Notes: a model not told the origin generated them from the letters alone. DNA of 52,191 nucleotides from an uncultured Chryseobacterium sp. (GCA_964418285.1 CAYQMC010000001.1:1-52191), one strand, 5' to 3'. Positions 15,930 through 41,987 are shown, counted from the stretch's first letter. A program made the numbers and translations.

Positions 15930-16246
15930 GGATCCATGCCGGGGTAACCTAAGCTCCTCGGCAGGGCGAACACATCTGATCTCCGAGCACCGTTCATCCG
16001 TGACCCCGCTCGGGTCGGATCCCACGACGGCCGTGCTTTTCTATTACCTGTGCCCTTTCAGGATCCAGTTTCGTCAAGTCATGTTCGACCCTCAAAGGTC
16101 CACTGTGAAATGGACTGGGATCCACGCGCCATCCCACGACCGAACGGGTGGCAGATCAAGTAGCATGGGATGTGAACATGATCCCGATCGATGCGTTCGC
16201 CCTGAGCTCTTCGGCGTCCCGCTACCTTCGTCGCCCAAGCTTCACC

Positions 16247-18925
16247 ATGATCGACGAGCAGCTGTTGGATCGGACCCATTTGTACGTGAGGCGCTGGTTC
16301 GCCCGGCGCATGCCCCCGCACATGGTCTTCCATGACCTGGAGCACACGTTGGGAGTTGCGCGCGCGGCAGTCGCCATAGCGCGGGCCATGAAGCTTTCCG
16401 CCACGGACATCGCCTTGGTGGAAGTGGCTGCCTTGTTCCACGACACAGGCTACGCCTTGGGGTATGCCGGACACGAGGAGCACAGCGCCCGCCTGGCCGA
16501 GGACTTTCTGCAAAAGCACGGTGCATCCGCGCGCGAGATCACCCGTGTCCGCTCGCTCATCATGGCCACTCGGTTCGATGCCAAGCCACGCAGCACCCTG
16601 CAGAAGGTATTGCGCGATGCGGATTCCAACAAGGCGGGGCAGGCGGATTTCCGTGCCAGGAGCGAACTCCTTCGTCGTGAATTGGAGGTGGTCCGTGGTA
16701 CAGCCATCGATCCCCGTTCCTGGAATGCAGAGGATCTGGCCTACCTCAGTGGACACCGGTTCCATACCGCCTACGCCCAGCGTCGTTATAGTGCCCAGAA
16801 ACGCATCAACCTGCTGGACCTGCGCAAACGTGCGGCCATGCCGGAACGAAAGCTCAAGGCCAAGCGGGCCAAGGAGCGTTTCATGGACCGCGACATGAGC
16901 TGGTTGTCGTTCAACGAGCGTGTGCTCCAGGAGGCGCGGTCGTCCGCTGTTCCCCTGTTGGAACGCCTGAAATTCCTGGCCATCTACTCCAACAACCTGG
17001 ACGAGTTCTACCGGGTGCGTGTCGCTTCATTGCGCAGTTTGGGCAAATTGAACAAGGTCGTGCGCCAGGTGCTTGACGTACCGCCGGAGAAGTTGGTGGA
17101 CCGGCTCAACCGCAAGGCACTCCAACAGCAGAAGGAGTTCGGCGCATTGTACAGGGGCACCTTGTTGCCGGCCTTGGCCGACCAGGGCATCCGCATCCTG
17201 CGCGAGACCGAGCTCGATGCCGCTCAGCGCAAGGCGGTGCGGTCCTATTTCACCAAGCGCATCGCAGCGCTGCTGAACACAGCCGCAGTGCGGGAAGGAA
17301 ACGCACCCTTCATCGAGGACCGCAAGTTGTACTTCGTGGTACGGCTGCGCCAGAACGGCCAAAGGAAGAACCGGCTGGTACTCCTGAATATTCCCGCCGA
17401 AGAGGCCGGCCGTTTCCTGCGTCTCCCTTCGAAACAGGGCTCGACCGACGTGATCTTCCTGGATGATGTCATACGCGTGTGCCTTCCAGGGATCTTCGCA
17501 GGACATAAGGTGCTGGACTGTCACGCCGTCAAGCTTTCACGCGATGCGGAGTTGTATCTGGACGAGGAGTTCGGGGGTAACGTCAAGGACAAGGTGCGCA
17601 AGAGCCTTCGCAAGCGGCGTACCGGTGTGCCATCGCGATTCCTGTACGACAATGCCATGCCACCGGCCACGTTGCGCGCACTGCGTGCGCTGCTGGGCCT
17701 GTCCAAACAGGATGTGGTGGCCGGCGGTCGATACCACAACTTCAGTGATCTGATGAAACTACCCGTGGAAGGGTATGCACACCTGCGTGATGTGCCCTGG
17801 CCGGCGATCGATCATCCGGCATTCGGTAAAGGCGGGAATGCATTCCGCACCATCGCTTCGGGTGATCGTCTGCTGCACTTCCCCTACCACGATTTCGGCG
17901 CACTGGTCCATTGGTTGGAGCAGGCCGCCACCGATGCGGCAGTGGTGCACATCGCGATAACCTTGTACCGCGTTGCGGACGGCTCTGCGGTATGCCATGC
18001 CTTGTTGAAGGCCCTGGAGCAGGGCAAGCGCGTCACGGTCTTCGTGGAAGTGCAGGCCCGTTTCGATGAGACTTCGAACCTGTACTGGGGCGAACGCTTG
18101 GAGAAGGCCGGTGCGAACGTGCTGTACAGCTACGAGCGGCTCAAGGTGCATTGCAAACTGTGCCTTGTGGAACGCACCGAACGGGGGCGCATAAAACGAT
18201 ACGCCTACCTGGGTACCGGTAATTTCAACGAACGCACCTCGCGCCTCTATGTCGATTCCGCCTTGCTCACGGCCCGTGGATCCATCACCCGTGAAGTGGA
18301 GGGTGTCTTTGCGCACCTGAGGGACCGTCGACTGCGGCCTCATCAGGAGCACTTGATGGTGGCACCACTGACCTTGCGTACCCGGCTGGAACAGCTGATC
18401 GACAAGGAGATCGAACTGGCCCTGAGCGGACGTCCGGCAGAGATCATCCTGAAGCTGAACAGCATCGAGGACCGCGCCATGATCCGGAAGCTTTACGATG
18501 CCAGCAATGCCGGCGTGAACGTGCGCATCATCGTCCGAGGCATCTGTTGCCTGGTTCCTGGGGTGAAGGGCATGAGCGAGAACATCACCGCGATCAGTAT
18601 CGTGGACCGTTACCTGGAACACACGCGTGCCTACGTGTTCGGCAACAACGGCAAGACACTGGTGTACCTTTCCAGTGCCGACTGGATGGGGCGCAACCTG
18701 GACCGCCGGATCGAAGTGGCCTTCCCCATCCTGGATGCTGCGTTGAAACAAGAGGTACTCGACATCCTGGAGATCCAATGGAGCGATCGGGTGAAAGCCC
18801 GCTTGATCGATGCACGACAGACCAACCCGTATGTGGTGCCGGTGCACGGCGAGCGACAGGTACACTCGCAGGAGGCCACCCACACCTATCTGGCCAAGAA
18901 GGCGCAGCGGGAGGCAGGTTCGTGA
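16247..18925 (+). CDS. ppk1: Polyphosphate kinase 1 with an N-terminal HD-domain extension (HD::PPK1 fusion)
   Basis: A PPK1 N-terminal signature (MDRDMSWLSFNERVLQEA...LERLKFLAIYSNNLDEFYRVRV) begins about 210 residues after the ATG at 16247, followed by full PPK1 head and PLD-like C domains. The preceding ~210 aa carry HD motifs (FHDLEHT...AALFHDTGY...LRDADS). The start could also be 16148 or 16178. Confidence 0.9.
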   Translation: MIDEQLLDRTHLYVRRWFARRMPPHMVFHDLEHTLGVARAAVAIARAMKLSATDIALVEVAALFHDTGYALGYAGHEEHSARLAEDFLQKHGASAREITRVRSLIMATRFDAKPRSTLQKVLRDADSNKAGQADFRARSELLRRELEVVRGTAIDPRSWNAEDLAYLSGHRFHTAYAQRRYSAQKRINLLDLRKRAAMPERKLKAKRAKERFMDRDMSWLSFNERVLQEARSSAVPLLERLKFLAIYSNNLDEFYRVRVASLRSLGKLNKVVRQVLDVPPEKLVDRLNRKALQQQKEFGALYRGTLLPALADQGIRILRETELDAAQRKAVRSYFTKRIAALLNTAAVREGNAPFIEDRKLYFVVRLRQNGQRKNRLVLLNIPAEEAGRFLRLPSKQGSTDVIFLDDVIRVCLPGIFAGHKVLDCHAVKLSRDAELYLDEEFGGNVKDKVRKSLRKRRTGVPSRFLYDNAMPPATLRALRALLGLSKQDVVAGGRYHNFSDLMKLPVEGYAHLRDVPWPAIDHPAFGKGGNAFRTIASGDRLLHFPYHDFGALVHWLEQAATDAAVVHIAITLYRVADGSAVCHALLKALEQGKRVTVFVEVQARFDETSNLYWGERLEKAGANVLYSYERLKVHCKLCLVERTERGRIKRYAYLGTGNFNERTSRLYVDSALLTARGSITREVEGVFAHLRDRRLRPHQEHLMVAPLTLRTRLEQLIDKEIELALSGRPAEIILKLNSIEDRAMIRKLYDASNAGVNVRIIVRGICCLVPGVKGMSENITAISIVDRYLEHTRAYVFGNNGKTLVYLSSADWMGRNLDRRIEVAFPILDAALKQEVLDILEIQWSDRVKARLIDARQTNPYVVPVHGERQVHSQEATHTYLAKKAQREAGS

Positions 18926-19910: not shown

Positions 19911-19987
<77 letters not shown>

Positions 19988-19989
19988 GA

Positions 19990-20018
19990 AAGGCGGTTCG
20001 CATGGACCGCCTTTTTTC
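19990..20018 (+). terminator. Rho-independent terminator after tRNA-Ala
   Basis: AAGGCGGT-tcgcatgg-ACCGCCTT followed by TTTTT. Confidence 0.6.
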
Positions 20019-20052
20019 GTTCCGAGGTCAGGAGGTGGCGCACCTTTGCCAC

Positions 20053-20937
20053 ATGCCTCTGCCCGGATCCCTCATCGAACAGCTCGCCGAGCATCTTTCG
20101 GCCCATTCCGGGCAGCCGGTGGACATCGAGGAAGCCTTTCCCGTGGGTGGCGGCTCCATCAACGATGCGTGGCGCTTGGAGACCGATTCCGGGCGTTTCT
20201 TCCTGAAGACCAACAGCGCCGACCGCTTCCCCAGCATGTTCGAAGCCGAGGCCGATGGGCTGCAGCGCTTGCGTGAAGCCGGGCCATTGCATGTACCCGA
20301 GGTGATCGCCCACGGTGAGGACCACAGCGACGGCTTCCTCCTGCTCGAATGGGTCGAAGGTGGCATCAAGGGGCCGGGGTTCTGGGCCGAATTCGGGCGG
20401 GGACTCGCACAACTGCACCGGCATACGCAGGAGCATTTCGGGTTGGATCGTGACAACTACATCGGCAGCTTGGTGCAGCGGAACACACCGGAGCGCGACT
20501 GGCCCTCCTTCTTCATCCACCAGCGCTTGGAGCCGCAGCTCAAGATGGCTCGGGACCGCAAACGCGTTGATGCCGGCATGGCCTTTCGTTTCGAGCGGCT
20601 GTTCCACCAACTGGACAGGCTCTTCCCGGCCGAACCTCCCGCTCTGCTGCACGGTGACCTTTGGACCGGTAATTTCCTTTGCGATGACGCAGGCCGTCCG
20701 GTGCTCATCGATCCCGCCGTGTACTATGGACACCGGGAGATGGACCTGGCCATGACCAAGCTGTTCGGCGGATCCGATGATGCCCTGTACACCGCCTACC
20801 ACGCTGAGTGGTCGTTGGAGCAGGGCTGGAAAGAGCGCGTCGACCTGTGCAACCTGTATCCGCTGATGGTCCATGTGAACCTCTTCGGCGGGGGCTACAT
20901 GGCGCAGGTGGAGGGGGTGCTCAAGCGCTTCGCATAG
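20053..20937 (+). CDS. Fructosamine/ketosamine-3-kinase family protein
   Basis: Internal ATG at 20053; the track ORF start at 19945 lies inside the tRNA. Motifs are GGGSINDAWRLETDSGRFFLKTN, LLHGDLWTGNF and IDPAVYYGHREMDLAM. Confidence 0.9.
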   Translation: MPLPGSLIEQLAEHLSAHSGQPVDIEEAFPVGGGSINDAWRLETDSGRFFLKTNSADRFPSMFEAEADGLQRLREAGPLHVPEVIAHGEDHSDGFLLLEWVEGGIKGPGFWAEFGRGLAQLHRHTQEHFGLDRDNYIGSLVQRNTPERDWPSFFIHQRLEPQLKMARDRKRVDAGMAFRFERLFHQLDRLFPAEPPALLHGDLWTGNFLCDDAGRPVLIDPAVYYGHREMDLAMTKLFGGSDDALYTAYHAEWSLEQGWKERVDLCNLYPLMVHVNLFGGGYMAQVEGVLKRFA

Positions 20938-21058
20938 CAATGGTTCCCAAGCGAAAGTCTCGGAACACGTTGGGACGCATCCGAGGCTTTCGCCAAAGGC
21001 CGGGGCAACTGGTGAACAAACCCCTTTGCAGACCATTCCCCGGCCAGGGGGCTCCTGG

Positions 21059-24000
21059 TCACTCCACGATGAGCCGCTGCTGCTTCATGATACCGTTCGT
21101 GTACACCACCTGCACGATGTACACACCAGGGCTGATCCCGTCCAGTGCGTAGTGCTCATCCGGGAGCATTTCATGGACCTCTCGCCCGCTGGCATCCAAG
21201 AGCAGCACATGCCGCAAAGCATCCTTGCCCAGTATTCGGAACATTCCGCTTGCCGGGTTCGGGAAGATGGTAGGTCCGGTCATCCTATCCGTACCACGCA
21301 CGGCCATTGTGGGGCTCCAAGAAAACTCCCCGTTGTGGTCCACCTGTTTGATCCGGTAATAGGAAATGCGATCGCTCGGATTAGGGTCAAGGTGGGTGTA
21401 ATCCGATAGCTGTTGTGTGGTTCCCTGGCCATCCACCCAGGCGATCTGTCGGAGATCCACCTCGCCATCGATCATGCGCCATACCTCGAAACCGGCATTG
21501 TCGAGTTCGGTGGCGGTGGTCCACTGCATCAATACTTCGCCTTCGGTGATACGTTCAGCAGAGAAGGAAAGCAGCTCCACCGGCAGTGGTAGACCGAAGG
21601 TGGTGATGTACAGTTCACCGTCGTCATCCAATACAGCGGTATAACCGTGCGTTCCCCCGTTGCCTTGGATACGTGGCTCCAATGCCGGAGCTGCCGGGTA
21701 TAAAGGCGTCCATATGTTGCCCGGTGGGTTGTTCATCAAGGAGCAATCCTCCATCGGACCTGCATAATGGGCCACCCCGGCATCTGCAGGGACACCTACG
21801 GCGGGATCCGCCGTGGCATAAGTGCCGAATTCATCCCCGCTGTGGAAGAGCCGCACGATGGCACCGGTGGTGATGGGGAGCTGTGTGCTGAGCTGCCAGT
21901 TGCGATCCAGGTAGTGTTGGCCGATGAGGCTTTGACGCACCGGGCCGTTGTTCACGTATACGTTCATGTTAACAGTACCGAGCACCTGGCCATTGTCGTT
22001 GAAGCGCGCCACCACCTTGCGGTCTTTGTAGATCCATTGGTCCTGTCCGCCGCCTGTACTGGTGATGGGGTCGGCCGGACCACAGGTGTTGAAGGCTTCG
22101 TTCCAGAGCTCGGGCGTGAATTCGTAGGCACCCATGTCCGGCAGTGTGGGGTCGCGCGGCAGGCCATCCTTGTCCGTGGTCACACCGGGGAAGGGTTGTG
22201 CCGCATCGTTGATCTCCATGCCGTATGCATGCAGGTCGTTGTTCCCATCGTAATACTTGGGGTCCGCAATGATCGAGTTCGCATTCGTGCCGGTGGCCAG
22301 GCTGAGCGTGGCGATGTCGGTATGGGTCCCACCCCACAATATCGCCAGTGGAAAGAAGCCAGTGGTATGGAAGCAGTTGTGATCGCCTTGTACCCCCGTA
22401 TTGGTGACATACACAGGGTTGGTGCCGGTGCCGGAGAACACATTGTTCCTGACATTGACCTCGGTGCCAGTGCCGGATGCCGCGTACAAAGCGTACCCAT
22501 CGTAGCGCTGCATGTGGAAGCTGTTGTGGACGACATCGATGCGCTCCAGATCTCCACCGATGTTGATCCCCAAGCGGCCTCGATAGAGGAATTCGTTGTT
22601 CGCGATCAATGCTCTGGAAGGCGCCAACGGCGCCACGTTGTACAGTGTCAAGCCCGATGCTGTGGTTGACGCTATGCTGTGCACCTTGTTCTTCGTGAAG
22701 GTGAACGGCCCCGTACAGTTGGAGAGGGCGACCGCGAACTGGTCGCGGCCTTCGAGCTGGTTGCCGCTCATGGTCAAGGTTCCAGCGAAGTTCGCGAAGT
22801 AGAATCCCGCATTCGGAGTGGTGCGGATGCAATCCGTGATCGATATGTGTTCCATGGGTCCTCCGGTGGTCCACCACATAGCGGAATAGCCTCCGCTCAA
22901 ATGACATGCCTCCAATTCGAGCTGTGGTTCTCCCGGACCGTTCTCCCTTTCGATCAAATGGCCGTTATTGTTGGTCGCAAAGATGTACAGTACAGCGCAG
23001 TTCCGAAGCCTCAGGTATTGATCGCCGGTCGCATTCGGATCCACGTACACGACCCGCTTGTACTGTGACCCACCGGGCCTGTTGAAGGTGATGTGTTCCA
23101 TGCTGACCCACTCCATACCGCGCCAATGCATCAAGTGATTGTTCGCAGGAGTGAAACTCGCGGGCCACTCCACACGCACCAACGAGCTGTCCATGGACAT
23201 CCCCCTGAAGGTGATCGTGTTCACACTGCTGTTCCCTGACACCGGTGCAAGGTCCAACTGTTCGTTGTATGTGCCATCCTCCACTTCAAAGACCACCGGG
23301 CCGTTGATCCCGCAGTTCTGCATCTTGCGGATTGCCGAGGTGAACGACGGGAAATCAGCAACCACCGATGGGCCAATGGTGTAGGTGCCGTTCAGGGTGA
23401 AGCAGTACTCCGTGGTCTCATCCGCGCCGATATCGGGCATGGTGGCCACCGGCTGTGGTCGCGGCTCACCATCGGCATCCGCCGTAACGCTGGCAAGGGG
23501 GGTGCCGTTCCCGGCGCAGGGGGATCCGCTCTGGAGGTGCAGATCGCTTACGGCGTTCACGTACAACGGGTCCTGGTTCCTGGAATTCGCATCGAATCCC
23601 GTGGCCGCGTTCAGGTCGGCGATCGTGGAATGCGTTCCATTCCACGTTGCGAAGGAGCTGCCGCTGCCGAGGTAATAGCAGTTGTAGTCGGCTTCGGAAA
23701 CAGCGGTCAGGTCCTGCACTCGTATCGCTAGAAAGGTGGGCGAGAAGAAACTATTGTTGATCAGACGGACCTCCGCGCCTGGTCCACCCGTGATGTCGAC
23801 CCTGCCCGAGCAACTGTTGTGGAGCATGTCCACGTACTGAACGGTCTGGAGGACGCACGCCGCACCCGTGCCTCGCATGAAGTTGTTCACGAGCAGGCCC
23901 TTGTTCGTGGGTGTGCCTACGCAGTTGCTGATCAGGAGCGCCGTTGAAGCGTTGGAGTACATGCGATTGCCGCGGAATTCGAAGCCGCCATCGCAATCGC

Positions 24001-24760
24001 TGAGCACATTGTTCAGGAAGAGGGCGGAGACCACCGTGTTGCTCGTGAAGAGATTATCGATCAGATGGACGCCGCCATCCACCGCATTGAACAGGATGCC
24101 TGAGTTGTACAGGACATTGCCCTCCATCCGGATCTCATCCGCCAACGAAGAGCCCCTCCAGTACACGGAATAGCGTCCATTTTCAAAGCGGTTCTCCGTG
24201 AACCGGATACCGGTCTGCAGCACCGCATCATCCACGTGGACCAGGTTCTGGTTCGCCGGTGCCGGAGCTGGGTTCACCACCCCTTGGAAACGACAACGTC
24301 GGAAGGTGATGTCCGCTGCGGGACCCTGGATCGACACCACATGTGCGTAGGTGGCCGATCCGGCGCGTCGAAAGGAAAGGTGCTCGAAGGTGATGTGCTG
24401 CGCGCCATTGATCCGTACCGCATAGTTCGGGTTGAAGGTGGTGCTGGTGGACGTGGATACGATGACGTTGGCCAGGGTGCTGTCCAGGGCCTGCCCCCGA
24501 AAGGTGATGGTGTTGGTCGCGGATGCGCCGGCTATCGGGGAGACGACGACCCGTTGGAAATAGCTCCCATTCGCCACCTCCATCACCACGGGACCGTTCA
24601 CCCCGAGTGTATTCAGGTCGGCGATGGCGGCCGCGAAGGAAATGTAGTCACCACCACCTCCGGGATCGATCACATACGTGCCGCTCATTTGGGCATGCAC
24701 CGGGGTCATCGTGAACACGAACAAGAAGAGCGCTGCACTGTGCCGAAGTTGGGAGAACAT
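21059..24760 (-). CDS. Giant T9SS-secreted protein with two right-handed parallel beta-helix modules and a type-A CTD
   Basis: ATG 24760 gives MFSQLRHSAALFLFVFTMTPVHAQ (signal peptide); the track start at 24784 is a TTG. There are two homologous modules, starting GTYVIDPGGGGDYISFAAAIADLNTLGVNGPVVMEV...NTITFRG and GTYTIGPSVVADFPSFTSAIRKMQNCGINGPVVFEV...NTITFRG. Each is followed by N-rich beta-helix repeats and a D.DG.PR...DIGA.E end. An Ig-like domain and the CTD (IFPNPASGMFRILGKDA...GVYIVQVVYTNGIMKQQRLIVE) follow. Confidence 0.85.
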   Translation of the reverse strand: MFSQLRHSAALFLFVFTMTPVHAQMSGTYVIDPGGGGDYISFAAAIADLNTLGVNGPVVMEVANGSYFQRVVVSPIAGASATNTITFRGQALDSTLANVIVSTSTSTTFNPNYAVRINGAQHITFEHLSFRRAGSATYAHVVSIQGPAADITFRRCRFQGVVNPAPAPANQNLVHVDDAVLQTGIRFTENRFENGRYSVYWRGSSLADEIRMEGNVLYNSGILFNAVDGGVHLIDNLFTSNTVVSALFLNNVLSDCDGGFEFRGNRMYSNASTALLISNCVGTPTNKGLLVNNFMRGTGAACVLQTVQYVDMLHNSCSGRVDITGGPGAEVRLINNSFFSPTFLAIRVQDLTAVSEADYNCYYLGSGSSFATWNGTHSTIADLNAATGFDANSRNQDPLYVNAVSDLHLQSGSPCAGNGTPLASVTADADGEPRPQPVATMPDIGADETTEYCFTLNGTYTIGPSVVADFPSFTSAIRKMQNCGINGPVVFEVEDGTYNEQLDLAPVSGNSSVNTITFRGMSMDSSLVRVEWPASFTPANNHLMHWRGMEWVSMEHITFNRPGGSQYKRVVYVDPNATGDQYLRLRNCAVLYIFATNNNGHLIERENGPGEPQLELEACHLSGGYSAMWWTTGGPMEHISITDCIRTTPNAGFYFANFAGTLTMSGNQLEGRDQFAVALSNCTGPFTFTKNKVHSIASTTASGLTLYNVAPLAPSRALIANNEFLYRGRLGINIGGDLERIDVVHNSFHMQRYDGYALYAASGTGTEVNVRNNVFSGTGTNPVYVTNTGVQGDHNCFHTTGFFPLAILWGGTHTDIATLSLATGTNANSIIADPKYYDGNNDLHAYGMEINDAAQPFPGVTTDKDGLPRDPTLPDMGAYEFTPELWNEAFNTCGPADPITSTGGGQDQWIYKDRKVVARFNDNGQVLGTVNMNVYVNNGPVRQSLIGQHYLDRNWQLSTQLPITTGAIVRLFHSGDEFGTYATADPAVGVPADAGVAHYAGPMEDCSLMNNPPGNIWTPLYPAAPALEPRIQGNGGTHGYTAVLDDDGELYITTFGLPLPVELLSFSAERITEGEVLMQWTTATELDNAGFEVWRMIDGEVDLRQIAWVDGQGTTQQLSDYTHLDPNPSDRISYYRIKQVDHNGEFSWSPTMAVRGTDRMTGPTIFPNPASGMFRILGKDALRHVLLLDASGREVHEMLPDEHYALDGISPGVYIVQVVYTNGIMKQQRLIVE

Positions 24761-24819
24761 GGCCGAAATCGCTTTGGTGTGCAAATTCCCACATCACCAT
24801 CGCGCAGTTCAAGTCGCAA

Positions 24820-24852
24820 TGGGTGAACGACCGATCCTGTTGGGTGAACGAC
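24820..24852 (-). promoter_or_regulatory. Candidate LytTR-regulator operator: exact 12-bp direct repeat TGGGTGAACGAC x2, 21-bp period
   Basis: Copies lie at 24820..24831 and 24841..24852 (plus strand). On the gene-sense strand this reads GTCGTTCACCCA-N9-GTCGTTCACCCA, immediately upstream of a TTG(-33-like)...TTTG promoter-like stretch. The proximal copy ends 59 nt before ATG 24760. The same core with the same period occurs at 26557..26589. Confidence 0.55.
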
Positions 24853-25167
24853 ACAGGGTAAGTCCAAAGGGAAGGAACAGGACTTGGTGGAGCATTGGTC
24901 CCCCGAGGACCTTCGCCGGTCAGCAGCAATGATCCCATTGCCCCGCACTTGGCCAGCTCTGCAAAGCAACGCGGGGCACAGGCCTCCATTCCCGGTATCG
25001 GCTGTTCGAAGAAGTCCGGGGTGCCCGTAGCCTCCCTTCGCTCCTCAACTCATCCACCGGTGGTGCAAGCAGCCCATGGTCCGGGGCTACCATCACGGAC
25101 GGTGCAAGGTCCGTTCAGTTCAGCCCTGAAATGGAAGAAGAAGTTCCGTTGGGGAGCAGTAGCGCCT

Positions 25168-26508
25168 TCACGGCGCAGTGAACTTGTTCAGCAGGCCCTT
25201 GCCCTTCTTGAGGATGTCGTTGGGGCCGTTGGAGGTGGAGTTCGTGGTGGACGATCCGCTCGTGGTGTTGGGCGCTGTGGCTTGTTGCACCGCTTTCTGT
25301 GCCCCGGATGTCGGCTTGCAGAGCATGCCCGGCTCGTAGCTGTTGATGCGCGCGATATCATCCGGACTGGTCAGCATCCACACTTCCAGCGCGCTGATCT
25401 TGTAGGTCTCGCCGGTCTTCTGGCCGTTCTTCCAAGTGCCGCCACCTTTGGTGAGGGCCATGCGCGTGTGGGCGTCCTGCGTGGCGTTCCACCATTCCAT
25501 CATATCGGCTTGCTGATGCTTCACGCCGGGATCCGCGCAGTACTGTTGTGCATAGGTGCTTTTTCCTTTGAAAGCGTTGTTCACGGCCTTGTTCACCAGG
25601 TCCGCACCGCGCTCTGTCAAGCGGATCGTGCTTCCCTCCACGAAGTGGTGCGGCGCAAGCATGCGCATCAGGTAGGCCTCGAACTGTTCTGCCGTGCTTT
25701 CTCGAAGCAGCTTGTGTGTGTACATGAACACGTCCACGTCACGCGCGAACTCCGGGATGGTCACCTCGCCCAAGGCTGCCAAGGCTGCGGCAGCCTGCTC
25801 TTCTTCCACACGACTGCCGATGGTGGGCATGGCGCGGATCTCCTCCGAAGTGAAGGTGCGTTTGTTCTCCTCCTTCGTTTCCTTTTGCGTGGTGATGAGG
25901 TTGGGTTTCCATGGACCGCTTACTTCATCGCGGTAGAAGCGTGTTTCCTGGATCACGGTCTCGGTGGCCACCTCGGTGTTGCTCACGATCCGATCCCCGA
26001 CCACTTCGAACTGCATGCTGAAAGACAATGGTGAGTGCCACTCGGTCTTCGGTTCGTCGGCCACGCGGATGCTCTTCAGGTCCACCATGCTATTGTACCG
26101 GTACGAGCTGAGGAAGGCTTTGAGGTTCGCTTTCGCATGGGCCAGGATGTCCGCCTCCGAAGGTGTGGGGATGCCTTCGTAGGTGTTGTTGGTGGTCTTC
26201 CATTCCCGGTAGCTCGGCGGGTTGCCTGTGTGGTAGCGGGCGAACCCGGATACCACCACCTGCGCGTTGGGGTATTCCGCGATCCCGGCAGGTAACCAGA
26301 TGGTGGCACCTCGCTCCCAGAACCACTGCGTGTGCGCATCGCTCCATGACTTCTTGGTGGTTCCCTTGGAGAGTTCCACCTTGAGTTGCTTGGGACTGGC
26401 GATGTCCTTCAGTATCTGGGCATCACTGGGTTGTGCGAACGCAGCGATCGCCGTAAGGCTGATGGCCGCAACAAGGAGGGCAAGCCGGATACGCATCTTC
26501 GTGGACAT
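25168..26508 (-). CDS. Secreted protein of unknown function (446 aa)
   Basis: Signal peptide MSTKMRIRLALLVAAISLTAIAAFAQ, balanced K/E/N/T composition unlike the R/G/H-rich antisense ORF 24895..26034, and a Ser/Thr/Asn-rich C-terminal tail. No domain recognised. Confidence 0.75.
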   Translation of the reverse strand: MSTKMRIRLALLVAAISLTAIAAFAQPSDAQILKDIASPKQLKVELSKGTTKKSWSDAHTQWFWERGATIWLPAGIAEYPNAQVVVSGFARYHTGNPPSYREWKTTNNTYEGIPTPSEADILAHAKANLKAFLSSYRYNSMVDLKSIRVADEPKTEWHSPLSFSMQFEVVGDRIVSNTEVATETVIQETRFYRDEVSGPWKPNLITTQKETKEENKRTFTSEEIRAMPTIGSRVEEEQAAAALAALGEVTIPEFARDVDVFMYTHKLLRESTAEQFEAYLMRMLAPHHFVEGSTIRLTERGADLVNKAVNNAFKGKSTYAQQYCADPGVKHQQADMMEWWNATQDAHTRMALTKGGGTWKNGQKTGETYKISALEVWMLTSPDDIARINSYEPGMLCKPTSGAQKAVQQATAPNTTSGSSTTNSTSNGPNDILKKGKGLLNKFTAP

Positions 26509-26556
26509 TTGGGTTCACGAACTTGCGACGGATCCATGGTATAGTGCCGTCCCGAT

Positions 26557-26589
26557 CGGGTGAACGTCGGAATGGGTTGGGTGAACGGA
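26557..26589 (-). promoter_or_regulatory. Candidate LytTR-regulator operator: direct repeat with GGGTGAACG core x2, 21-bp period
   Basis: CGGGTGAACGTC lies at 26557..26568 and TGGGTGAACGGA at 26578..26589 (plus strand). The site abuts the stop codon of the LytTR regulator gene (26590) and ends 48 nt upstream of ATG 26508 of the secreted-protein gene. Confidence 0.55.
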
Positions 26590-27330
26590 TCAGAGCGTAC
26601 GGATCCGCGCCATCAGCGCCTCCTTGTACGTCTTCCCCACGGGGATCACCTGCGTGCCCATGCGCACACAGCCGTCCTCCACAGCGGTCACCTTGCGGAG
26701 GTCCACCACGTAGCTGCGGTGTATCCGCACGTGGTGCGGACTGTTCAACTTCTCTTCCACGGCTGCGAGGGTGCTGGTGATCACGTACTTCTTCGTCGGT
26801 GTGTGCAAGGTCACATAGTTGTCGTCCGCTTCCGCCAACCGGATCTCGGCCAGGGGCACTTTCACCAAGCGGCCTTTGTCGCGTACGAAGATGCTGTCGT
26901 CGATCACGAAATCGCTCCGTTGGGCGGTTTCGGGCTGGGTGCTCACGTCCAGCTTTCCGGCGGTGCGTGCAAGGGCCACTTCGATCTGTGTGTGCAGGTC
27001 GTTCTCATCGAAGGGTTTGATGATGAACCCGGCTGGCCGCACTTCCTTGACACGATCCAGGGTCGCCTTGTCCGCGTGGCTGGTCACGAAGATGAAGGGC
27101 GTGGGATGCTTCGCGTTGATGGTGGACGCCAGTTGGACGCCGTCGGCACCATCGCCCAGGTTGATGTCCAGGAGCAAGAGGTCCGGCTTATGCGTGATCA
27201 GTTCGGACATCGCATCCAAGGCGTTGTCGCATACGGCGCACACGGCGTAGCCGAGCTCGTCCAGATGGGCGCGCAGGTCCTCCGCGATAAGCGGTTCGTC
27301 CTCCACCACGATGATGCGTACCGCGTTCAT
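26590..27330 (-). CDS. LytR/AlgR-family response regulator (REC + LytTR DNA-binding domain)
   Basis: REC domain: IIVVEDEPLIAEDL...PDLLLLDINLGDG...FVTSH...GFIIKPF. LytTR domain: IFVRDKGRLVKVPLAEIRLAEADDNYVTLHT...FVRIHRSYVVDL. The start overlaps the kinase stop (ATGA). Confidence 0.9.
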   Translation of the reverse strand: MNAVRIIVVEDEPLIAEDLRAHLDELGYAVCAVCDNALDAMSELITHKPDLLLLDINLGDGADGVQLASTINAKHPTPFIFVTSHADKATLDRVKEVRPAGFIIKPFDENDLHTQIEVALARTAGKLDVSTQPETAQRSDFVIDDSIFVRDKGRLVKVPLAEIRLAEADDNYVTLHTPTKKYVITSTLAAVEEKLNSPHHVRIHRSYVVDLRKVTAVEDGCVRMGTQVIPVGKTYKEALMARIRTL

Positions 27331-29159
27331 TGGACCTTCTTGTACTTGCGGATGATGAGCCGGGCCAAGGTACCACCGTCCCGGATCACGCTGTGCTCGG
27401 CGCCCAACTTCGAGGAGAACGACCTGATCATGTTCAGCCCGAATCCGGTGCCCTCGGCATTGCGGGGTGCAGCCGGATCATAGCCGATGCCATCGTCGTG
27501 CACATCGAGTATCAGCACATCGGCGGGTCGCCCCTGCGGGTCAACGCCACTGTTGCCTTCCCCAGCGGTCTCGTACATGGCTATCGATAGCACTCCCTTC
27601 CTTCCGTCGGGCCACGCGTATTTCAGCGCGTTGGTGATCAGCTCGTTCAGGATCAAGCCCAGTGGGATCGCGGTGTCCACATCCAAGGTCATGGGTTGCA
27701 CCTCCATGTTCAGCGCAACGCGATCGGCCTGCACCTGGTGGCTGCTCATGAGGCTGCGCGCAAGCTTCTCCACATAACCTGGCATGCTGATCCCGGTGAG
27801 GTCATCCTCCTTGTACAGGTCCTGGTGGATCAGTGCCATGCTCTTCACACGGTCGCGTCCATCGCGCACGGCACCGCGCGCCTTCTCATCGGTGATACCA
27901 CGGCCTTGTATGCTCAACAAGCTGCTCACCACTTGCAGGTTGTTCTTCACGCGGTGGTGGATCTCGCGCAACAGCAGTTCCTTCTCCTTCAGTTGCTCCT
28001 CGATGATCGCGTTCTTCTTGGCCAGTTCTCCTTCGGCTTTGCGCTTCACACGGTACGCGCGGTAGGCGAACACAGCCGCCAAGAGCAGCAGGACCGCACC
28101 CACCACCACGGCCCGTATCGTGATCGCGCGTTGCTCCAGGGCGGCGGCGCGCTCGGCCAATAGCGCATCCTTCTTCCCGCTTTCGTATTTCTCGCGCACC
28201 TCGGCGATCTGTGCACTGCGTTCGGCATTGAGCAACGTGTCGTTCAAGGCCGTCATCTCCTTGTAGTGGATCAAGGCGGAATCCATGCGGCCGATCGCTT
28301 CGAAGTGCTCGCTCAAATGTCCTTCACCATCGGCCGCCACTTTCGACCCGCCGTTGGCGCGTGCGATGCGCACCCCTTCACGCAGGTGGATCAACGCACT
28401 GTCGCGAATGCCGTTCGCATCCATCATTCGGCCCAAGTTGATCAGCAGGCTTGCGCGGTTCAGCTCATCTTCGCCCACGGGATGCACCGCCAGTGCAGAG
28501 CGAATGGTGGCCAGGGCCAGCTCGGGGTCGCCTCGGTCCAAGTAGCACACGGCCAGGTTCATGCGCACCTGGGCGATGGATGACCGCTCACCGAGTTCGG
28601 TAAGCATGCGATCCGCCAATTCATAGTAGACCACTGCACTGTCCTTTTCACCCTCATAGAAGTGGATGTTGCCCAGGTTGTTGCCCACGTTGGCGATCCA
28701 TGCGGTATCCCCCAGCGCTTCGAATCCGTCCAGCGCAGTGCGGTATTCACGTGTGGCCTCCGCGAAACGGGAATCGTGCTCCAGTACGCTGCCCACGTTG
28801 TTGTGCGCCATGGCCGTGTACCAAGGGTCATCGCCCTGCTCGAAATGCGATAGGGCAGCTACGTAGTGTCGCAAGGCACCATCCTGTTCCCCCTTGGCGG
28901 AATAGCACATGCCGGTGTAATTGTGGCCTTTGCCGATCTCCAAGGCCACCCCGCTGGCCTCCGCTAGTTCCACATATTGCCTTGCGAAGAACAAACCGCT
29001 ATCCGGATCGCTGAATACCGTGGCACGCAACAGTGCAGTGAGCACCGGTAGTCGCGCGGTGTCGTTGGGCAAGCTGTTCAGCACGCGGAGCAGGCTGTCC
29101 AATTGGGCTTCACTGGACAGCGAAGCCGAGCAGGCAAGAACGATCAGGAGCCAACGCAT
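27327..29159 (-). CDS. Sensor histidine kinase: signal peptide, extracytoplasmic TPR repeats, one TM, HisKA_2 + HATPase_c
   Basis: MRWLLIVLACSASLSSEAQ, multiple TPR-like repeats, TM segment AVVVGAVLLLLAAVFAYRAY, H-box EIHHRVKNNLQVVSSLLSIQ, N-box LNELITNALKYAW and G-box DDGIGY...GFGL. Confidence 0.9.
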   Translation of the reverse strand: MRWLLIVLACSASLSSEAQLDSLLRVLNSLPNDTARLPVLTALLRATVFSDPDSGLFFARQYVELAEASGVALEIGKGHNYTGMCYSAKGEQDGALRHYVAALSHFEQGDDPWYTAMAHNNVGSVLEHDSRFAEATREYRTALDGFEALGDTAWIANVGNNLGNIHFYEGEKDSAVVYYELADRMLTELGERSSIAQVRMNLAVCYLDRGDPELALATIRSALAVHPVGEDELNRASLLINLGRMMDANGIRDSALIHLREGVRIARANGGSKVAADGEGHLSEHFEAIGRMDSALIHYKEMTALNDTLLNAERSAQIAEVREKYESGKKDALLAERAAALEQRAITIRAVVVGAVLLLLAAVFAYRAYRVKRKAEGELAKKNAIIEEQLKEKELLLREIHHRVKNNLQVVSSLLSIQGRGITDEKARGAVRDGRDRVKSMALIHQDLYKEDDLTGISMPGYVEKLARSLMSSHQVQADRVALNMEVQPMTLDVDTAIPLGLILNELITNALKYAWPDGRKGVLSIAMYETAGEGNSGVDPQGRPADVLILDVHDDGIGYDPAAPRNAEGTGFGLNMIRSFSSKLGAEHSVIRDGGTLARLIIRKYKKVQ

Positions 29160-29181
29160 GCCGCAAGGTGCGGAAGTTCGA

Positions 29182-30168
29182 TCAGAACTGCGGTCTTTCC
29201 GGCTCGTTGTCCAGCACCTTGGCGATGCGCGCCAGCACTTCAGGGGTGAGCAGGTCCTGCGCCTCGCTCGCCTTGAGGTTCTCCTTGAGCTGCGCCTCCT
29301 TGCTGGCGCCCAGGATCACGGTGCTCACATTGGGGTTCTTCAGGCACCAGGCAAGGGCCATCACCGGCAGCGAGAGCCCAAGACCATCAGCGATCTTGTT
29401 CAGCTTCTCCACGGTCTTCAAGCGGGCGGGTGTGAGCTCGCGTTCGCGCAACCAGTCGAGTCCTGCCATGGTAAGGCGCGTGCCTTTCGCGGCCTTGATG
29501 TCGCGGTGCTTGCCGGTGAGAATGCCACTGGCCAGAGGGCTCCAGATCGTGGTGCCCAGGCCTACGGTCTTGTACACCTGGTCGAACTCCACCTCCACCT
29601 TGTCGCGGTGGAACATGTTGTATTGCGGCTGTTCCATGACGGGGGCGATCAGGTGGTGTTGATTCGCCACCATATGTGCTTCCATGATCTCCTGCGCGCT
29701 CCATTCACTGGTGCCCCAGTAGAGGATCTTGCCGCTCATGATCAGCTGGTGCATCGTCCACACGGTTTCGGCAATGGGCGTATTCTTGTCCGGGCGGTGG
29801 CAGAAGTAGAGGTCGAGATAGTCCACTTGCAGCCGCTGCAGCGCGGCGTTGCACGCCTCCACCAAGTGCTTGCGGTGCAGACCCACCTGGGTCGGCAATT
29901 TGCCGCCGGTGCCGAAGAAGGCCTTGCTGCTCACGATCCAGGTGTCGCGCGACCACTTGGTCTTCTTCAGGATCTTCCCCATCACCTTCTCGCTCTCGCC
30001 ACGAGCGTATATCTCGGCGTTGTCGAAGAAGTTGACCCCGTTGTCATAGGCGGTCTTCATCAGCTTCTCAGCAGTAGCATCGCTGATCTGTTTGCCGAAG
30101 GTGAGCCAGCTGCCCAGGGAGAGTTCTGAGACTTGAAGACCGGAGGTGCCGAGGCGACGGTAGCGCAT
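29182..30168 (-). CDS. Aldo/keto reductase, Kv-channel beta-subunit-like (AKR6-like)
   Basis: Internal ATG at 30168 gives MRYRRLGTSGLQVSELSLGSWLTFGKQISDATAEKLMKTAYDNGVNFFDNAEIYARGESEKVMGKILKK, which closely parallels Kv-beta/AKR N-termini. Confidence 0.9.
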   Translation of the reverse strand: MRYRRLGTSGLQVSELSLGSWLTFGKQISDATAEKLMKTAYDNGVNFFDNAEIYARGESEKVMGKILKKTKWSRDTWIVSSKAFFGTGGKLPTQVGLHRKHLVEACNAALQRLQVDYLDLYFCHRPDKNTPIAETVWTMHQLIMSGKILYWGTSEWSAQEIMEAHMVANQHHLIAPVMEQPQYNMFHRDKVEVEFDQVYKTVGLGTTIWSPLASGILTGKHRDIKAAKGTRLTMAGLDWLRERELTPARLKTVEKLNKIADGLGLSLPVMALAWCLKNPNVSTVILGASKEAQLKENLKASEAQDLLTPEVLARIAKVLDNEPERPQF

Positions 30169-30314
30169 GGTGGTGGAGTTGAAGGGTATGGTTTGCCGAT
30201 GCGGACGTTGATGGAACAAAGGTCGGGGCTTAAGGTGGGCCGTTGGCAATTGAAGGAGGGGTCCTTGCGCATATGTGCTTTCCGGATATCTTTCACCACC
30301 ACGATACACCTCCC

Positions 30315-32090
30315 ATGACCCCATCCTTACCCGCGCGATACCTCGTTATCGCTTTGTTGTGCGTCAGTGTGCGTTCCCTCGCCCAGTGCCCCAATTGTGT
30401 GGCCGAGGTCACCTGTACGGCTTCTCCGGCGTACCCCACGTTATGTCCCGCCCAGCCACCTGATGCCACTGCCGGCGAGTTCTACGAGTCGGACATCACG
30501 TTCTGGTTGCCCACCCAGTTCACCGATCCGGGCACCGGCTTCGATGTCACCTTCCAGCAGATGACCATCACCAGCGTTACAGGGCTGCCCTTCGGACTCA
30601 CCTTGGAAACGAGTTCGCCGGATGGCATCTATTTCCCACAGCAAAGCCAGTATGGCTGCGGCCGCATCTGCGGCACGCCCGTTGGCCCTGGCACGTTCGA
30701 TATCACCATCAGTATCATCGCTGGTGTCACCTTTTCGGGCATCGATATCGATGCGCCTGAGCAGTTCACCATACCGCTGGTCGTGCTACCGGGCAGCGGT
30801 GGCAACAGCAGTTTCACCTTTGGTCCCACCTCCGGCTGCGGCAGCGTGGAGGTCGCTTTCGAGGCACTTATCGATGCCACCCCTTCGCCCATGAGCTACG
30901 ACTGGGACTTCGGCAACGGTGTTTCAAGCACGGAGCAGGACCCTATTGTCACCTTCGATGAGCCCGGATCCTACACGGTCGAACTGGAGACCACGATACT
31001 GGGTTATGTGCTCGATGCGGTCAACGTGAACGGGTTGAACGGAAACTGGTGTGGCGATGTGGAAGAGGCCTTCTGCAACTGCGGAACCCCGATCATCGGC
31101 ACCTGTCCGGATCTCTACTTTGTGCTAAGCAATGCCAATGGCCCCGTGTACACCAGTCCTACGAACGGCGGGGGCACCAGTACGTCATGGTCGGGCCTGG
31201 GGATCGCGTTGCAGGATCCTCCTTATGCGATAACCGTGTGGGACGAGGATCCTGTGAGCCAGGACGACAACCTCGGCACCTACGCTATCGTTCTTGATCC
31301 AGGTGCCACGTATGGGTTCAATGTGGCCGGTGGAACCAACGGTGTGCTGACCATCGACCTGGTAGCCCTGCAGACGTTCAACGACACCGATGTGGTCGAG
31401 GTGTTCGACCTGCCGGAGGTTGTCGTGGAAGCGCAGCCCAATGGCCAACTCTGCGTGGCCGATACTGCCCTGGTGGCCTACACCTGGTTCCTCGATGGCG
31501 ATACCGTGCCGGATGCTTTCGGACCTTGTGTCGTCCCCACAGGCCCCGGCTTGTGGTGGGTGGTGGCCACCAACGGGTTCGGTTGCACGACCCAGAGCGA
31601 TACGCTCGTTGTTTGCCCTCAGGTGGCAGTGGTCCAGACCGGGGCGGTCCTCTCGGTTCCTGCAGGATTCAACAACTATGTGTGGAGCTATGGCGGTATT
31701 GCACTGCCCAATGGCAATGGACCGGCCATAACCGCTGGTGCCGATGGCCTCTACACCGTAGTGGTGCAAGCCGAGAACGACTGTGAGATCACGGCAACCT
31801 ACATGTACAGCACGGTCGGTATCGCCGAGCTGGAAGCTGCAGGAGGTGGGATCCTGGTCTACCCCGTTCCCAACGATGGTGTGTTCACCGTGGAGGCCGC
31901 CGGGCTTACCGGCGCCAGCGCAGGCCTGCGCATTTCCGATATGAGCGGGCGTATCGTGTACGAGTCCCGGGAACGGATCGCCTTGGGCCGCTTGCGTGCA
32001 GCGCTGATGCTCGATACGGCCCCAGGACCGTATGTGGTCCAGGTATGGGACGAAACACGGAGCTTCACCCAGCGGATCATGGTGCGGTAG
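30315..32090 (+). CDS. T9SS-secreted protein with PKD domain and type-A CTD
   Basis: Internal ATG at 30315 gives MTPSLPARYLVIALLCVSVRSLAQ. The PKD-like segment is YDWDFGNGVSSTEQDPIVTFDEPGSYTVELETT. The CTD is VYPVPNDGVFTVEAAGL...LRISDMSGRIVYES...GPYVVQVWDETRSFTQRIMVR. Confidence 0.8.
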   Translation: MTPSLPARYLVIALLCVSVRSLAQCPNCVAEVTCTASPAYPTLCPAQPPDATAGEFYESDITFWLPTQFTDPGTGFDVTFQQMTITSVTGLPFGLTLETSSPDGIYFPQQSQYGCGRICGTPVGPGTFDITISIIAGVTFSGIDIDAPEQFTIPLVVLPGSGGNSSFTFGPTSGCGSVEVAFEALIDATPSPMSYDWDFGNGVSSTEQDPIVTFDEPGSYTVELETTILGYVLDAVNVNGLNGNWCGDVEEAFCNCGTPIIGTCPDLYFVLSNANGPVYTSPTNGGGTSTSWSGLGIALQDPPYAITVWDEDPVSQDDNLGTYAIVLDPGATYGFNVAGGTNGVLTIDLVALQTFNDTDVVEVFDLPEVVVEAQPNGQLCVADTALVAYTWFLDGDTVPDAFGPCVVPTGPGLWWVVATNGFGCTTQSDTLVVCPQVAVVQTGAVLSVPAGFNNYVWSYGGIALPNGNGPAITAGADGLYTVVVQAENDCEITATYMYSTVGIAELEAAGGGILVYPVPNDGVFTVEAAGLTGASAGLRISDMSGRIVYESRERIALGRLRAALMLDTAPGPYVVQVWDETRSFTQRIMVR

Positions 32091-32146: not shown

Positions 32147-32195
32147 TTCGTGCAACAAGCCCCCGGCACGGGCGTTGCTGTTCCCAGATCCTACC

Positions 32196-35100
32196 ATGCG
32201 CTCCGACTACGACCTTCTGATCTCCAAGCTGGACGCCTTCATCCGGAAGTACTACAAGGACCGGCTGATCCGGGGTGCGCTGTATAGCATAGGCCTGCTG
32301 GTGGCGGTGTTCCTTGCGGTCTCACTACTGGAACACCTTGGTCGCTTTGGGATACTGGCCCGCACCTTGCTTTTTTGGGGTGCCTTGGCAGCCATGGCAA
32401 TGGTGATCGTTCGTTTCGTGGCGATCCCCCTGGTCAAACTGTTCCGCTTGGGTTCCCTCATCAGCCACGAAGAGGCTGCACGCATCGTGGGCACCCACTT
32501 CACCGAAGTGCGGGATAAACTGCTGAACACCCTGCAGTTGCGGGGAATGGCCCAGGACACGCCGGAGCAACGCGATCTGATCGAAGCGGCCATTGCCCAG
32601 CGGAGCAGGGAGTTGGGGCCTGTGCCCTTCACCAACGCCATCGATCTTGGTCGCAACACCCGTTACCTGCGTTATGCCCTGCCACCTTTGGCCGTGTTGC
32701 TCATACTGCTCTTCGCAGCCCCAAGCCTGATCACCGGTCCCACACAGCGCCTCATCCGCCATGGTAGTGAGTTCATCCCCGAAGCTCCGTTCCGTTTTGT
32801 GCTTGTGAACGAGGAACTCACCGTGCCTGAGCAGCAGGATATCGAGGTGGTGGTGGAGCTTACCGGCGATGTGGTGCCCCAGCAGGTGGAGTTGGAAGTG
32901 GCTGGACAGCGCATTCCCCTTGTCAAGAAGGATGCCCGGCGATTCGCTCATCGATTCCGAAACGTGCAAAAGGATATCAGCTTCCACTTCACTGCAGAAG
33001 GCTTCCGCAGCGAGGACCACGAATTGCGTGTGGTGCCACACCCCATGCTGCTTGATTTCAGGCTTGCGTTGGACTTCCCCGATTACTTGGGAATGCCGGA
33101 TGAGACCATCGACAATTCGGGCGACGTCACCGTGCCGGCAGGAACGCGGATCACATGGGACCTCAATGCGCGCAGTAGCGATCGCCTCGACCTGGTGTTC
33201 GATGACACCACCCTGGTGCTGGAACCTGCGGCCAGGACCACCGGTGGCCAGTTGTTCCGGAGCACGCGTCGTTTCATGGCCGGCCACAGCTACCGCATGA
33301 CGGCCCGCAATGGTGAACGCGTGGCCGACGATGCCTTGCAGTATCGGGTGGAAGTGGTGCCGGACCTGTACCCCACCATCCAGGTCGAGACCCGTGCCGA
33401 TAGCACGGCCCCCAAGCGCCTGTTCTACCGGGGCGATATCGGTGATGACCACGGGTTCAAGCGCCTGCTGTTCCACTACCGCTTCGTGCAGGGTGGCGAT
33501 AGTGTGCCGCCGGAACTGCGCAGCGGAGCCAAGGAACTGCGGATCGCTCCGCGCGAAACGCGCCAGGAGTTCTTCCACAGTTGGGAGTTGTACGGACTTA
33601 CCGTGCTGCCCGGGGACCGCATAGAGCATTGGTTCGAAGTGTGGGACAACGATGGCGTCAATGGAAGTAAGAGCACACGCAGCGCCACCCAGGTATTTTC
33701 CGCACCCACCCTCAAGGAACTCGCTGATCAGCAGGACATGGATAGCGACGCGCTCAAGAGCGCCATGGAGGAAAGCATCCGCGAGGCGCGCGACATACAG
33801 CGTGAATTGGACAAGCTGCGGCGGGAACTCCTCGAGAAGAAGGAGCTCAACTGGCAGGACCAGCAGAAGCTGGAGAGTGTGATGGAGCGTCAGCAGGAAC
33901 TGCAGAAGAACATCGAACGCAGTACCGAGCAGTTGCGCCAGACCCAACAGCAACAGCGGGAGTTCAGACAGATGGATGAACGGCTTCTGGAGAAGCAGCA
34001 GCAGGTGCAGGAGCTCTTCGAGAACATCCTGAACGAGGAAATGAAGGAACTCTATCGGCAGATGGAGGAGCTCATGGAAAAGCTGGACAAGGACCTGTTG
34101 CAGGAACAGCTCGAGGACATGAAACTGGACCAGGAGGATGTGGAAAAGGAGCTGGACCGCGCCCTGGAAATGTTCAAGCGCATGGAGGTGGAGCAGAAGG
34201 CCGAGGACATCGCCAAGCAGTTGGAGGACCTGGCGCGTGAACAAGAGAAGTTGAGCGAGGAGAGCAAGAAGGGTGATACCCCGACCGAGGAACTAAAGGA
34301 AAAGCAGGAGGAATTGAACAAGGCCTTCGAAGAGTTGCGCAAGGACATGGACGACCTGGAGGAAAAGAACGAAGCACTGGAGCAGCCCATGGACCTGCCC
34401 GAAACCGAGAGTGCCGAGGACGAGATCCAGAAGGACCAGGAGCAGAGCAGTGAGCAACTGGACAAGAAGCAGAACCAGAAGGCCTCGGACAAGCAGAAGA
34501 GTGCTGCCGAGAAGATGGAACAGCTCGCCTTCCAAATGCAAAGTGCGATGGCGAACAATGCCGAAGAGCAGCAAGAGGAGGATATGGATGCGCTGCGGCA
34601 GCTGTTGGAGAACATCGTCCACTTGAGCTTTGAGCAGGAGGGCCTGATGGACCAAGTGACCACCACCAACATCCGCGATCCACGCTTCATAGAACATGGC
34701 CGTACCCAGCGCAAATTGCGCGACGATGCCAAAGTGATCGAGGATTCGCTCTTCGCACTGAGCAAGCGCGTACCCCAATTGGAAAGCATCGTGAACCGCG
34801 AGATGAACGCTGTGAACGCCAACATGGACGATGCCACCAACTACATGGGCGAAGCACGCGCCAACGAGCGTTTCCGTCCCATGGCAGCCGACAAGCAACA
34901 GTACGCCATGACCTCCTTGAACAACCTTGCCCTGCTTCTGGATGAAGCGCTGCAGCAGATGATGCAACAAATGCAGCAGCAGGGCAATGGCAGTTGCGAC
35001 AAACCGGGGAAACCGGGCAAACCCGGCCAGGGCAAGGCGGGCATGTCCAAGATGAAGGCCCAGCAGGAAGCACTCCAGAAGCAGTTGGAGGAAATGCGGA

Positions 35101-35603: not shown

Positions 35604-35610
35604 ACAGCCC

Positions 35611-41798: not shown

Positions 41799-41987
41799 TT
41801 TGAGCAGGATGCCGAAGCTAAGGCCTTGACACGATCCAGGGACCCGACGTTGCTTGGCTGGATCCTTCTGTTGTTGAACTCCTGATCGTGCTGGTCCGCT
41901 GCAAAGCCCCGGTTTGGAAGGGCGGGTCACCGGCTGGCTAACTTGCCGCCCCTCCGCCGGGACCCATTGCACCGCGGAGTTGTTCGT

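Follow-up and report, generated by a model that had tools for sequence, protein, structure and literature searches.

A candidate LytTR two-component module with a conserved direct-repeat operator beside the genes for two exported proteins in an uncultured Chryseobacterium sp.

We analysed a DNA stretch of 52,191 nucleotides from an uncultured Chryseobacterium sp. (GCA_964418285.1 CAYQMC010000001.1:1-52191), hereafter called the window, in which four genes in a row on the minus strand (21059-29159) encode a sensor kinase, a response regulator, an exported protein termed P446 and a giant beta-helix protein. The original prediction for this locus, made from the sequence, had described four consecutive minus-strand genes in this interval: a kinase with tetratricopeptide repeats (TPR) and a HisKA_2 domain coupled to a LytTR regulator, a 446-aa protein without recognisable domain, and a duplicated beta-helix cargo of the type IX secretion system (T9SS), with the same repeat operator ahead of each exported-protein gene. 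Every one of these elements was found at the coordinates given. The module is bounded downstream by a convergent fructosamine-kinase gene and a tRNA-Ala gene, and upstream by an aldo/keto reductase gene whose stop codon lies 22 nt from the kinase start codon. The aldo/keto reductase gene (29182-30324, minus strand) has the same orientation as the kinase gene, is syntenic with it in many relatives (L001, L010-L013, L024 and L145 among the loci described below), and may be co-transcribed with the kinase-regulator pair.

The sensor histidine kinase (27327-29159, minus strand; 610 aa) was delineated by Pfam and NCBIfam matches together with hydropathy. Its parts are, in order, an N-terminal signal-like segment, about 320 aa of TPR repeats, a transmembrane segment, a HisKA_2 domain (PF07568, 92.6 bits, E-value (E) 1.7e-26, above cutoff), which identifies it as a HisKA_2-type kinase, and a HATPase_c domain (PF02518, 30 bits, above cutoff). 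Since hydropathy revealed a short signal-like segment at the N-terminus and, apart from it, a single strong transmembrane segment (residues 343-371), the TPR array is probably extracytoplasmic, that is, periplasmic. The regulator (26590-27330, minus strand; 246 aa) consists of a receiver (REC) domain (PF00072, E 5.2e-23) and a LytTR domain (PF04397, E 4.6e-18), both above their gathering scores; by our reading, the conserved receiver Asp is D55. No other LytTR protein is encoded in the window. The start codon of the regulator gene and the stop codon of the kinase gene share bases in the sequence ATGA. The pair is kept in relatives, with kinase orthologues (49-79% identical) in the same position and regulator orthologues of 55-92% identity.

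Two identical sites of the form CGTTCACCC-N12-CGTTCACCC, each made of 9-bp direct repeats separated by a 12-bp spacer (a period of 21 bp), lie on the minus strand ahead of the two exported-protein genes. Operator 1 (26558-26587), identified by a repeat scan and by its conservation in relatives, begins 3 nt past the regulator stop codon and ends 49 nt ahead of the annotated P446 ATG. Operator 2 (24821-24850), identified by the same scan and by its conservation upstream of giant beta-helix genes, ends 60 nt ahead of an ATG at 24760. When the 52 kb were searched for GTTCACCC-N13-GTTCACCC with at most two mismatches, the minus strand gave two matches, at 24821-24849 and 26558-26586, and there were no others; the mean over shuffled sequences was 0.07, and none of 100 shuffles contained two or more. 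LytTR regulators typically recognise two 9-bp repeats, 12 bp apart, located 4-11 bp upstream of the -35 element (PMC6193735). At the level of sequence, the arrangement in the window matches this rule: two repeats of about 9 bp in direct orientation, a gap of about 12 bp, and a position a few bp upstream of a putative promoter.

A scan for relatives of P446, limited to one genome per species, yielded 24 loci with P446 identities of 41-77%, and their gene order was read by tblastn with the window proteins. The regulator lay immediately upstream of P446 in 21 of the 24 loci; in these the TPR kinase was also present wherever the sequence reached, and in most, beta-helix T9SS genes followed downstream. 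The loci lacking the upstream regulator (L018, L020 and L023) are among the most divergent, at 45-47% identity. Relatives with a P446 identity of 41-87% to the window protein have kept the operator both ahead of P446 and ahead of the giant beta-helix genes, and operator 1 started 1-3 nt past the regulator stop codon in nearly all loci. A gapless alignment in fixed register of 18 distinct operator-1 sites and 15 distinct operator-2 sites showed half-sites with a mean major-base frequency of 0.95-0.99, against 0.53-0.55 for the 12-nt spacer and 0.51-0.60 for the flanking bases; for operator 1 alone, the half-sites reached 0.97 and 0.99, compared with 0.55 in the spacer. Both comparative checks that the original prediction had suggested, on the co-occurrence of the genes and on conservation of the operator, thus came out in its favour. 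Additional beta-helix genes in four loci (L001, L002, L004 and L015) each carry an operator copy of their own. As beta-helix genes are often duplicated and lost here, their upstream sequence could have been copied along with them, and the repeats might then be a structural or recombination remnant of gene duplication, or a chance likeness, with no regulatory role. We consider this very improbable, because P446 is unrelated to the beta-helix genes yet has the same site, because the half-sites hardly change across genomes in which spacer and flanks have diverged, and because the number of matches expected by chance is low and both spacing and position fit the LytTR rule (PMC6193735).

Further conserved boxes were found downstream of both operators. 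About 32 nt downstream of operator 1 lies CAAGTTCG (26518-26525, minus strand), a proposed -7-like element for P446 that holds a fixed register in 18 distinct sites; the conserved sequence there comprises GATC and, after it, cAAGTTCG (26525-26518). Downstream of operator 2 lie CTTGAAC (24813-24807, minus strand), which is -33-like, and GGAATTTG (24789-24782, minus strand), which is -7-like, both in fixed register in 15 distinct sites. At the corresponding places the operator-2 relatives share cTGGAC, starting about 8 nt past the proximal repeat, and GGGAnnTTG. The common arrangement is thus a -33-like TTG/TGG about 8 bp downstream of the proximal repeat, with the -7-like box in fixed register after it, and we infer that these boxes are -33/-7 promoter elements. 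The flavobacterial sigma-A -7 box is TAnnTTTG, at -12 to -5 (PMC9723704), and the window boxes appear to resemble this Bacteroidota element, which would place the transcription starts near 26513 and 24777. The start codons could be refined accordingly. For the giant gene, ATG 24760 is the likely start because the alternative TTG at 24784 sits inside the conserved -7-like box; for P446, ATG 26496 is the likely start because homologues begin at residues aligning with M5 of the window protein. With these two ATGs, the spacing from box to start codon is 20-21 nt at both genes. A scan for sigma-70 promoters gave no match, a result that is uninformative for Bacteroidota, and a scan for intrinsic terminators found none on the minus strand, including between the regulator gene and P446.

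The direction of control is not readable from sequence, and the lack of a terminator between the regulator gene and P446 means that read-through could supply basal expression. Hence the regulator might bind the repeats and repress both promoters, or act differently at each. We regard this as improbable, since the sites lie upstream of the -33-like element without overlapping it, which is the position of LytTR activators (PMC6193735), and since the -7-like boxes match the consensus poorly, as expected of activator-dependent promoters. Activation through both sites is therefore the direction that we adopt below.

The first putative output, P446 (25168-26508, minus strand; likely start 26496), carries a hydrophobic N-terminal signal of the Sec type, as judged by hydropathy, and has no match in Pfam or NCBIfam; the likely start shortens the predicted 446 aa to 442 aa. 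The claim that it is secreted held as far as the Sec-type signal peptide and did not extend to export past the periplasm. Its AlphaFold2 (AF2) model has a predicted local distance difference test (pLDDT) score of 85.4, with residues 30-400 mostly above 90. A P446 profile searched against PDB sequences gave no match, and a Foldseek search of the fold against the PDB gave no match at E<=0.001; weak Foldseek likenesses to NTF2-like/LDB and capping-protein folds were rejected, with template-modelling (TM) scores of about 0.1. Close homologues fall into 45 clusters, none of which carries a functional name, and all those with a named source are proteins of metagenome-assembled genomes (MAGs) labelled Flavobacteriales or Bacteroidota. 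In a profile search of 1.84 billion representatives the family comprised 291 clusters, some distant members of which have C-terminal Tudor/Agenet-like barrels that indicate no function. One homologue (L015:381-1694) is frameshifted in a long-read-derived MAG, in a locus whose operator spacing is off by 1-2 nt; the frameshift marks either a pseudogene or an indel introduced by assembly.

P446 is built from a folded core, a disordered serine/threonine/glycine linker and a conserved basic C-terminal tail, ILKKGKGLLNKFTAP; this C-terminal region lies at 25168-25260. All intact P446 homologues that are linked to the kinase-regulator pair end in such a tail, of the form [LI]xKKGKGLLNKxxxP-COOH, whereas none of the three without the pair does; this correlation is confounded by phylogeny. 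P446 could conceivably be part of a sensing loop, with its basic tail as a ligand of the periplasmic TPR array of the kinase, although we consider this doubtful. In that case, production of the beta-helix protein would be subject to feedback, with the system keeping watch either on its own exported product or on the state of T9SS cargo export.

The second putative output (21059-24760, minus strand, with the alternative start at 24784; 1233 aa from the ATG) was characterised by Pfam and NCBIfam searches, AF2 modelling and self-alignment. It consists of a signal peptide, read from the sequence, two right-handed beta-helix modules, a middle region and a T9SS type A C-terminal domain. The protein matched Beta_helix (E 4.4e-12) as well as the choice-of-anchor Q domain, and each module ends in a choice-of-anchor Q motif. 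The modules are about 430 aa each and 30% identical to one another (E 3e-51), and the orthologues carry 2-4 of them. The C-terminal sorting domain places the protein among T9SS type A cargo by TIGR04183 (24.4 bits, cutoff 23); PF18962, which is also listed for this protein and many of its orthologues, scored 21.3, under its cutoff of 27. Use of the T9SS by the host organism is further indicated by a second cargo gene in the window, for an FG-GAP/ASPIC protein (38674-40677, minus strand) with a clear T9SS C-terminal domain (E 3.7e-10).

The AF2 model of module 1 is a right-handed parallel beta-helix (pLDDT 80, predicted TM score 0.84), and Foldseek returned 34 PDB matches at E<=0.001, nearly all of them polysaccharide-active enzymes and phage tailspikes or depolymerases. 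At the sequence level, a beta-helix module gave no match against the PDB. The invariant residues of the modules belong mostly to an Asn ladder and to the choice-of-anchor Q motif. The modelled fold fits polysaccharide binding or processing, with catalysis unproven by fold, and the combination of tandem modules, choice-of-anchor Q motifs and a T9SS tail fits an adhesin equally well. The earlier description of the protein as adhesin/glycanase-like is narrowed only as far as a beta-helix fold resembling that of polysaccharide enzymes.

The loci of relatives suggest how the window came to its present form. Their order is aldo/keto reductase, kinase, regulator, P446, a beta-helix T9SS protein of about 611 aa with one module, a LytTR-only protein of 108 aa and a giant beta-helix T9SS protein with 2-4 modules. 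The two extra genes are seen at L024:11335-13493 and also in L001, L004, L006, L010-L013 and L021; three genes follow operator 1 in L024, with the stop codon of one overlapping the start codon of the next. In a further relative (L145, P446 87% identical), the kinase, regulator, operator 1 and P446 are followed by a 614-aa beta-helix gene, and homology to the window ends just past the P446 stop codon. The ancestral locus had two further genes: one, translationally coupled to P446, for a 611-aa beta-helix T9SS protein, and one, with its stop codon against operator 2, for a LytTR-only protein of 108 aa. In the window this site is occupied by a spacer of 317 nt between P446 and operator 2 (24851-25167, minus strand). 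Neither blastn nor tblastn found remnants of the two genes in the 383-bp gap, and, operator 2 and the giant gene having been kept, the window represents a reduced locus. No Rfam match at E<=1 was found over 20000-30500, and the spacer folds no better than its shuffles (z -0.9). In three loci a second TPR kinase gene follows the LytTR-only gene (L002:3834-5618, L004:13964-15745 and L015:3922-5694); that of L004 is 57% identical to the window kinase, compared with 49% for the L004 kinase upstream of the regulator.

Because the LytTR-only gene was itself under operator 1, its loss suggests that a cascade or feedback step has disappeared from this genome. It also raises the question of which protein occupies the repeats. 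The main occupant could be another LytTR protein, such as a receiver-less LytTR-only paralogue encoded elsewhere, leaving the adjacent regulator with other targets or a modulating role. In most relatives the LytTR-only gene is the last of the operator-1 operon, its stop codon abuts operator 2 and its product is 35% identical to the LytTR domain of the regulator; furthermore, there are known examples of LytTR regulators that bind 9-12-9 repeats without having a receiver (PMC6193735). The window, however, has kept a perfect operator 2 while lacking the LytTR-only gene, and operator 1 remains tied to the end of the regulator gene in nearly all loci. We therefore judge this alternative unlikely, and continue with the adjacent regulator as the presumed occupant.

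The extent of the regulon was assessed over about 0.5 Mb. No off-locus operator site occurred in the window, and the related loci, about 430 kb in total, had few. Among these few are two, in L014 and L017, that lie ahead of the gene for a secreted SBBP-repeat protein, with a paralogous kinase-regulator pair next to it; the segments concerned (L014:1941-6790 and L017:824-5553) comprise an operator-like repeat with 1-2 mismatches, an SBBP beta-propeller-repeat protein of about 730 aa, and a second TPR kinase and LytTR regulator that are 37-52% identical to the window pair. A metagenome-wide operator scan returned at least 120 stretches, and among the matches listed five came from this clade, all at the same two positions; the remaining matches listed were due to chance or to 21-bp tandem repeats in unrelated genomes of 37-76% GC. 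The predicted self-contained nature of the regulon accordingly holds within the roughly 0.5 Mb examined and is not a genome-wide statement.

These observations point to a LytTR two-component module with a local regulon, which probably activates two adjacent promoters through a defined operator. With its extracytoplasmic TPR array the membrane kinase would sense a cue from the envelope or from outside the cell, and it would then phosphorylate the adjacent REC-LytTR regulator. A dimer of the regulator would then bind the paired CGTTCACCC repeats just upstream of the two Bacteroidota-type promoters, and would thereby activate transcription of P446 and of the T9SS-secreted tandem beta-helix protein. 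Given that the outputs are P446 and a T9SS beta-helix protein with a polysaccharide-enzyme-like fold, the cell surface or matrix may be altered in response to the cue, by proteins that bind or process polysaccharides. Such an activity of the two output proteins is presumed, as are binding of the regulator to these sites and activation rather than repression.

Several points weigh against this proposal. The link from regulator to site is drawn from sequence, and the second LytTR protein (108 aa) in the locus of relatives could bind the same repeats. The boxes GGAATTTG and CAAGTTCG depart from TAnnTTTG. The window scan found no operator upstream of the kinase gene, so that the locus lacks the autoregulation that is classic for LytTR systems. 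Paralogous pairs with similar sites in L014 and L017 make cross-talk between modules possible, and the regulon may extend beyond the roughly 0.5 Mb sampled.

Other features of the window concern genes around the module. A 358-aa minus-strand open reading frame (ORF) at 19960-21036 was considered as a fifth gene and ruled out: it is the antisense shadow of the convergent plus-strand gene for fructosamine kinase (PF03881, E 3e-88), and the synteny that it seems to show is that of this gene. The listed start of the fructosamine-kinase ORF (region 19945-21036, plus strand) overlaps tRNA-Ala(GGC) at 19913-19987, which means that the actual start must lie further downstream. In the polyphosphate kinase ORF (16148-18925, plus strand) an HD-domain match covers residues 64-160 and the PPK1 domains begin at residue 245; this ORF is either an HD fusion or an over-extended call. 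The AT skew of 0.36 at 34000-36000 (plus strand) stems from a DUF4175-like protein of 1142 aa (32175-35603) whose C-terminal half is coiled-coil-like and rich in Glu, Lys and Gln, and no tandem repeat is present there. Finally, a 1322-aa ORF without Pfam match (40692-44660, minus strand) adjoins the gene for the FG-GAP/ASPIC protein.

The locus offers a phylogenetically footprinted operator and promoter geometry for one Bacteroidota LytTR system, a connection from a sensor kinase of the TPR type to the expression of T9SS cargo, and a conserved envelope protein family with a confidently predicted fold that has no PDB match. If confirmed, it would provide a testable model for how the production of surface- or matrix-modifying proteins is turned on and off in environmental Flavobacteriales, a group that is common in activated sludge.

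LytTR two-component systems with direct-repeat operators beside genes for secreted products include AgrCA, ComDE, PlnBCD/BlpRH and FsrCA. The locus shares with such Agr/Com/Blp-type systems a REC-LytTR regulator beside a kinase, and paired 9-bp repeats with a 12-bp spacer near the promoters of adjacent exported-product genes (geometry according to PMC6193735). It differs in its kinase, which is a single-pass TPR/HisKA_2 protein whereas theirs are polytopic and peptide-sensing; in its promoters, which appear to be of the Bacteroidota -33/-7 type; and in its outputs, a T9SS beta-helix protein and the envelope protein P446. The locus also has no gene for a peptide pheromone or for its processing and export, and no operator upstream of the kinase-regulator pair, the neighbour of the kinase gene being the aldo/keto reductase gene. 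It therefore does not belong to the peptide quorum-sensing LytTR systems.

The kinase resembles the FimS-type kinases of Porphyromonas gingivalis in having a periplasmic TPR array, one transmembrane segment and a cytoplasmic kinase part. FimS controls a surface structure. The likeness to the NCBIfam FimS model (NF053520) is weak (residues 6-405, E 2e-16), and the score of 59.3 bits against an equivalog cutoff of 600 indicates that the kinase is not a FimS orthologue; moreover, unlike FimS, its partner is a LytTR regulator, and its kinase core best matches HisKA_2/PhyK-like models. HdrRM/BrsRM-type LytTR regulatory systems (PMC6193735) are similar in that relatives encode a receiver-less LytTR protein and have the same 9-12-9 repeats. 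In contrast to them, the window holds a full kinase-regulator pair and no LytTR-only gene, and the LytTR-only gene of relatives follows the beta-helix gene, precedes operator 2 and has no membrane inhibitor partner, so that the locus is not of the HdrRM type either. For the output, the fold of module 1 is like those of PL6/PL9 lyases, CE8 pectin methylesterases, the AlgE4 epimerase and Vibrio RbmB (Foldseek probability 1.0; best TM-score 0.52, with AlgE4), at sequence identities of 8-15%.

LytTR regulators are abundant in annotated genomes of Bacteroidota. The literature searched yielded only genome surveys and incidental mentions; a Bacteroidota LytTR system that is characterised and has a defined operator was not among them, in agreement with the original view that a LytTR-operator-T9SS system in this phylum is uncharacterised. 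Compared with the systems above, the regulatory logic of the locus is familiar; what stands out is the unusually clear definition of its operator, together with the new P446 family.

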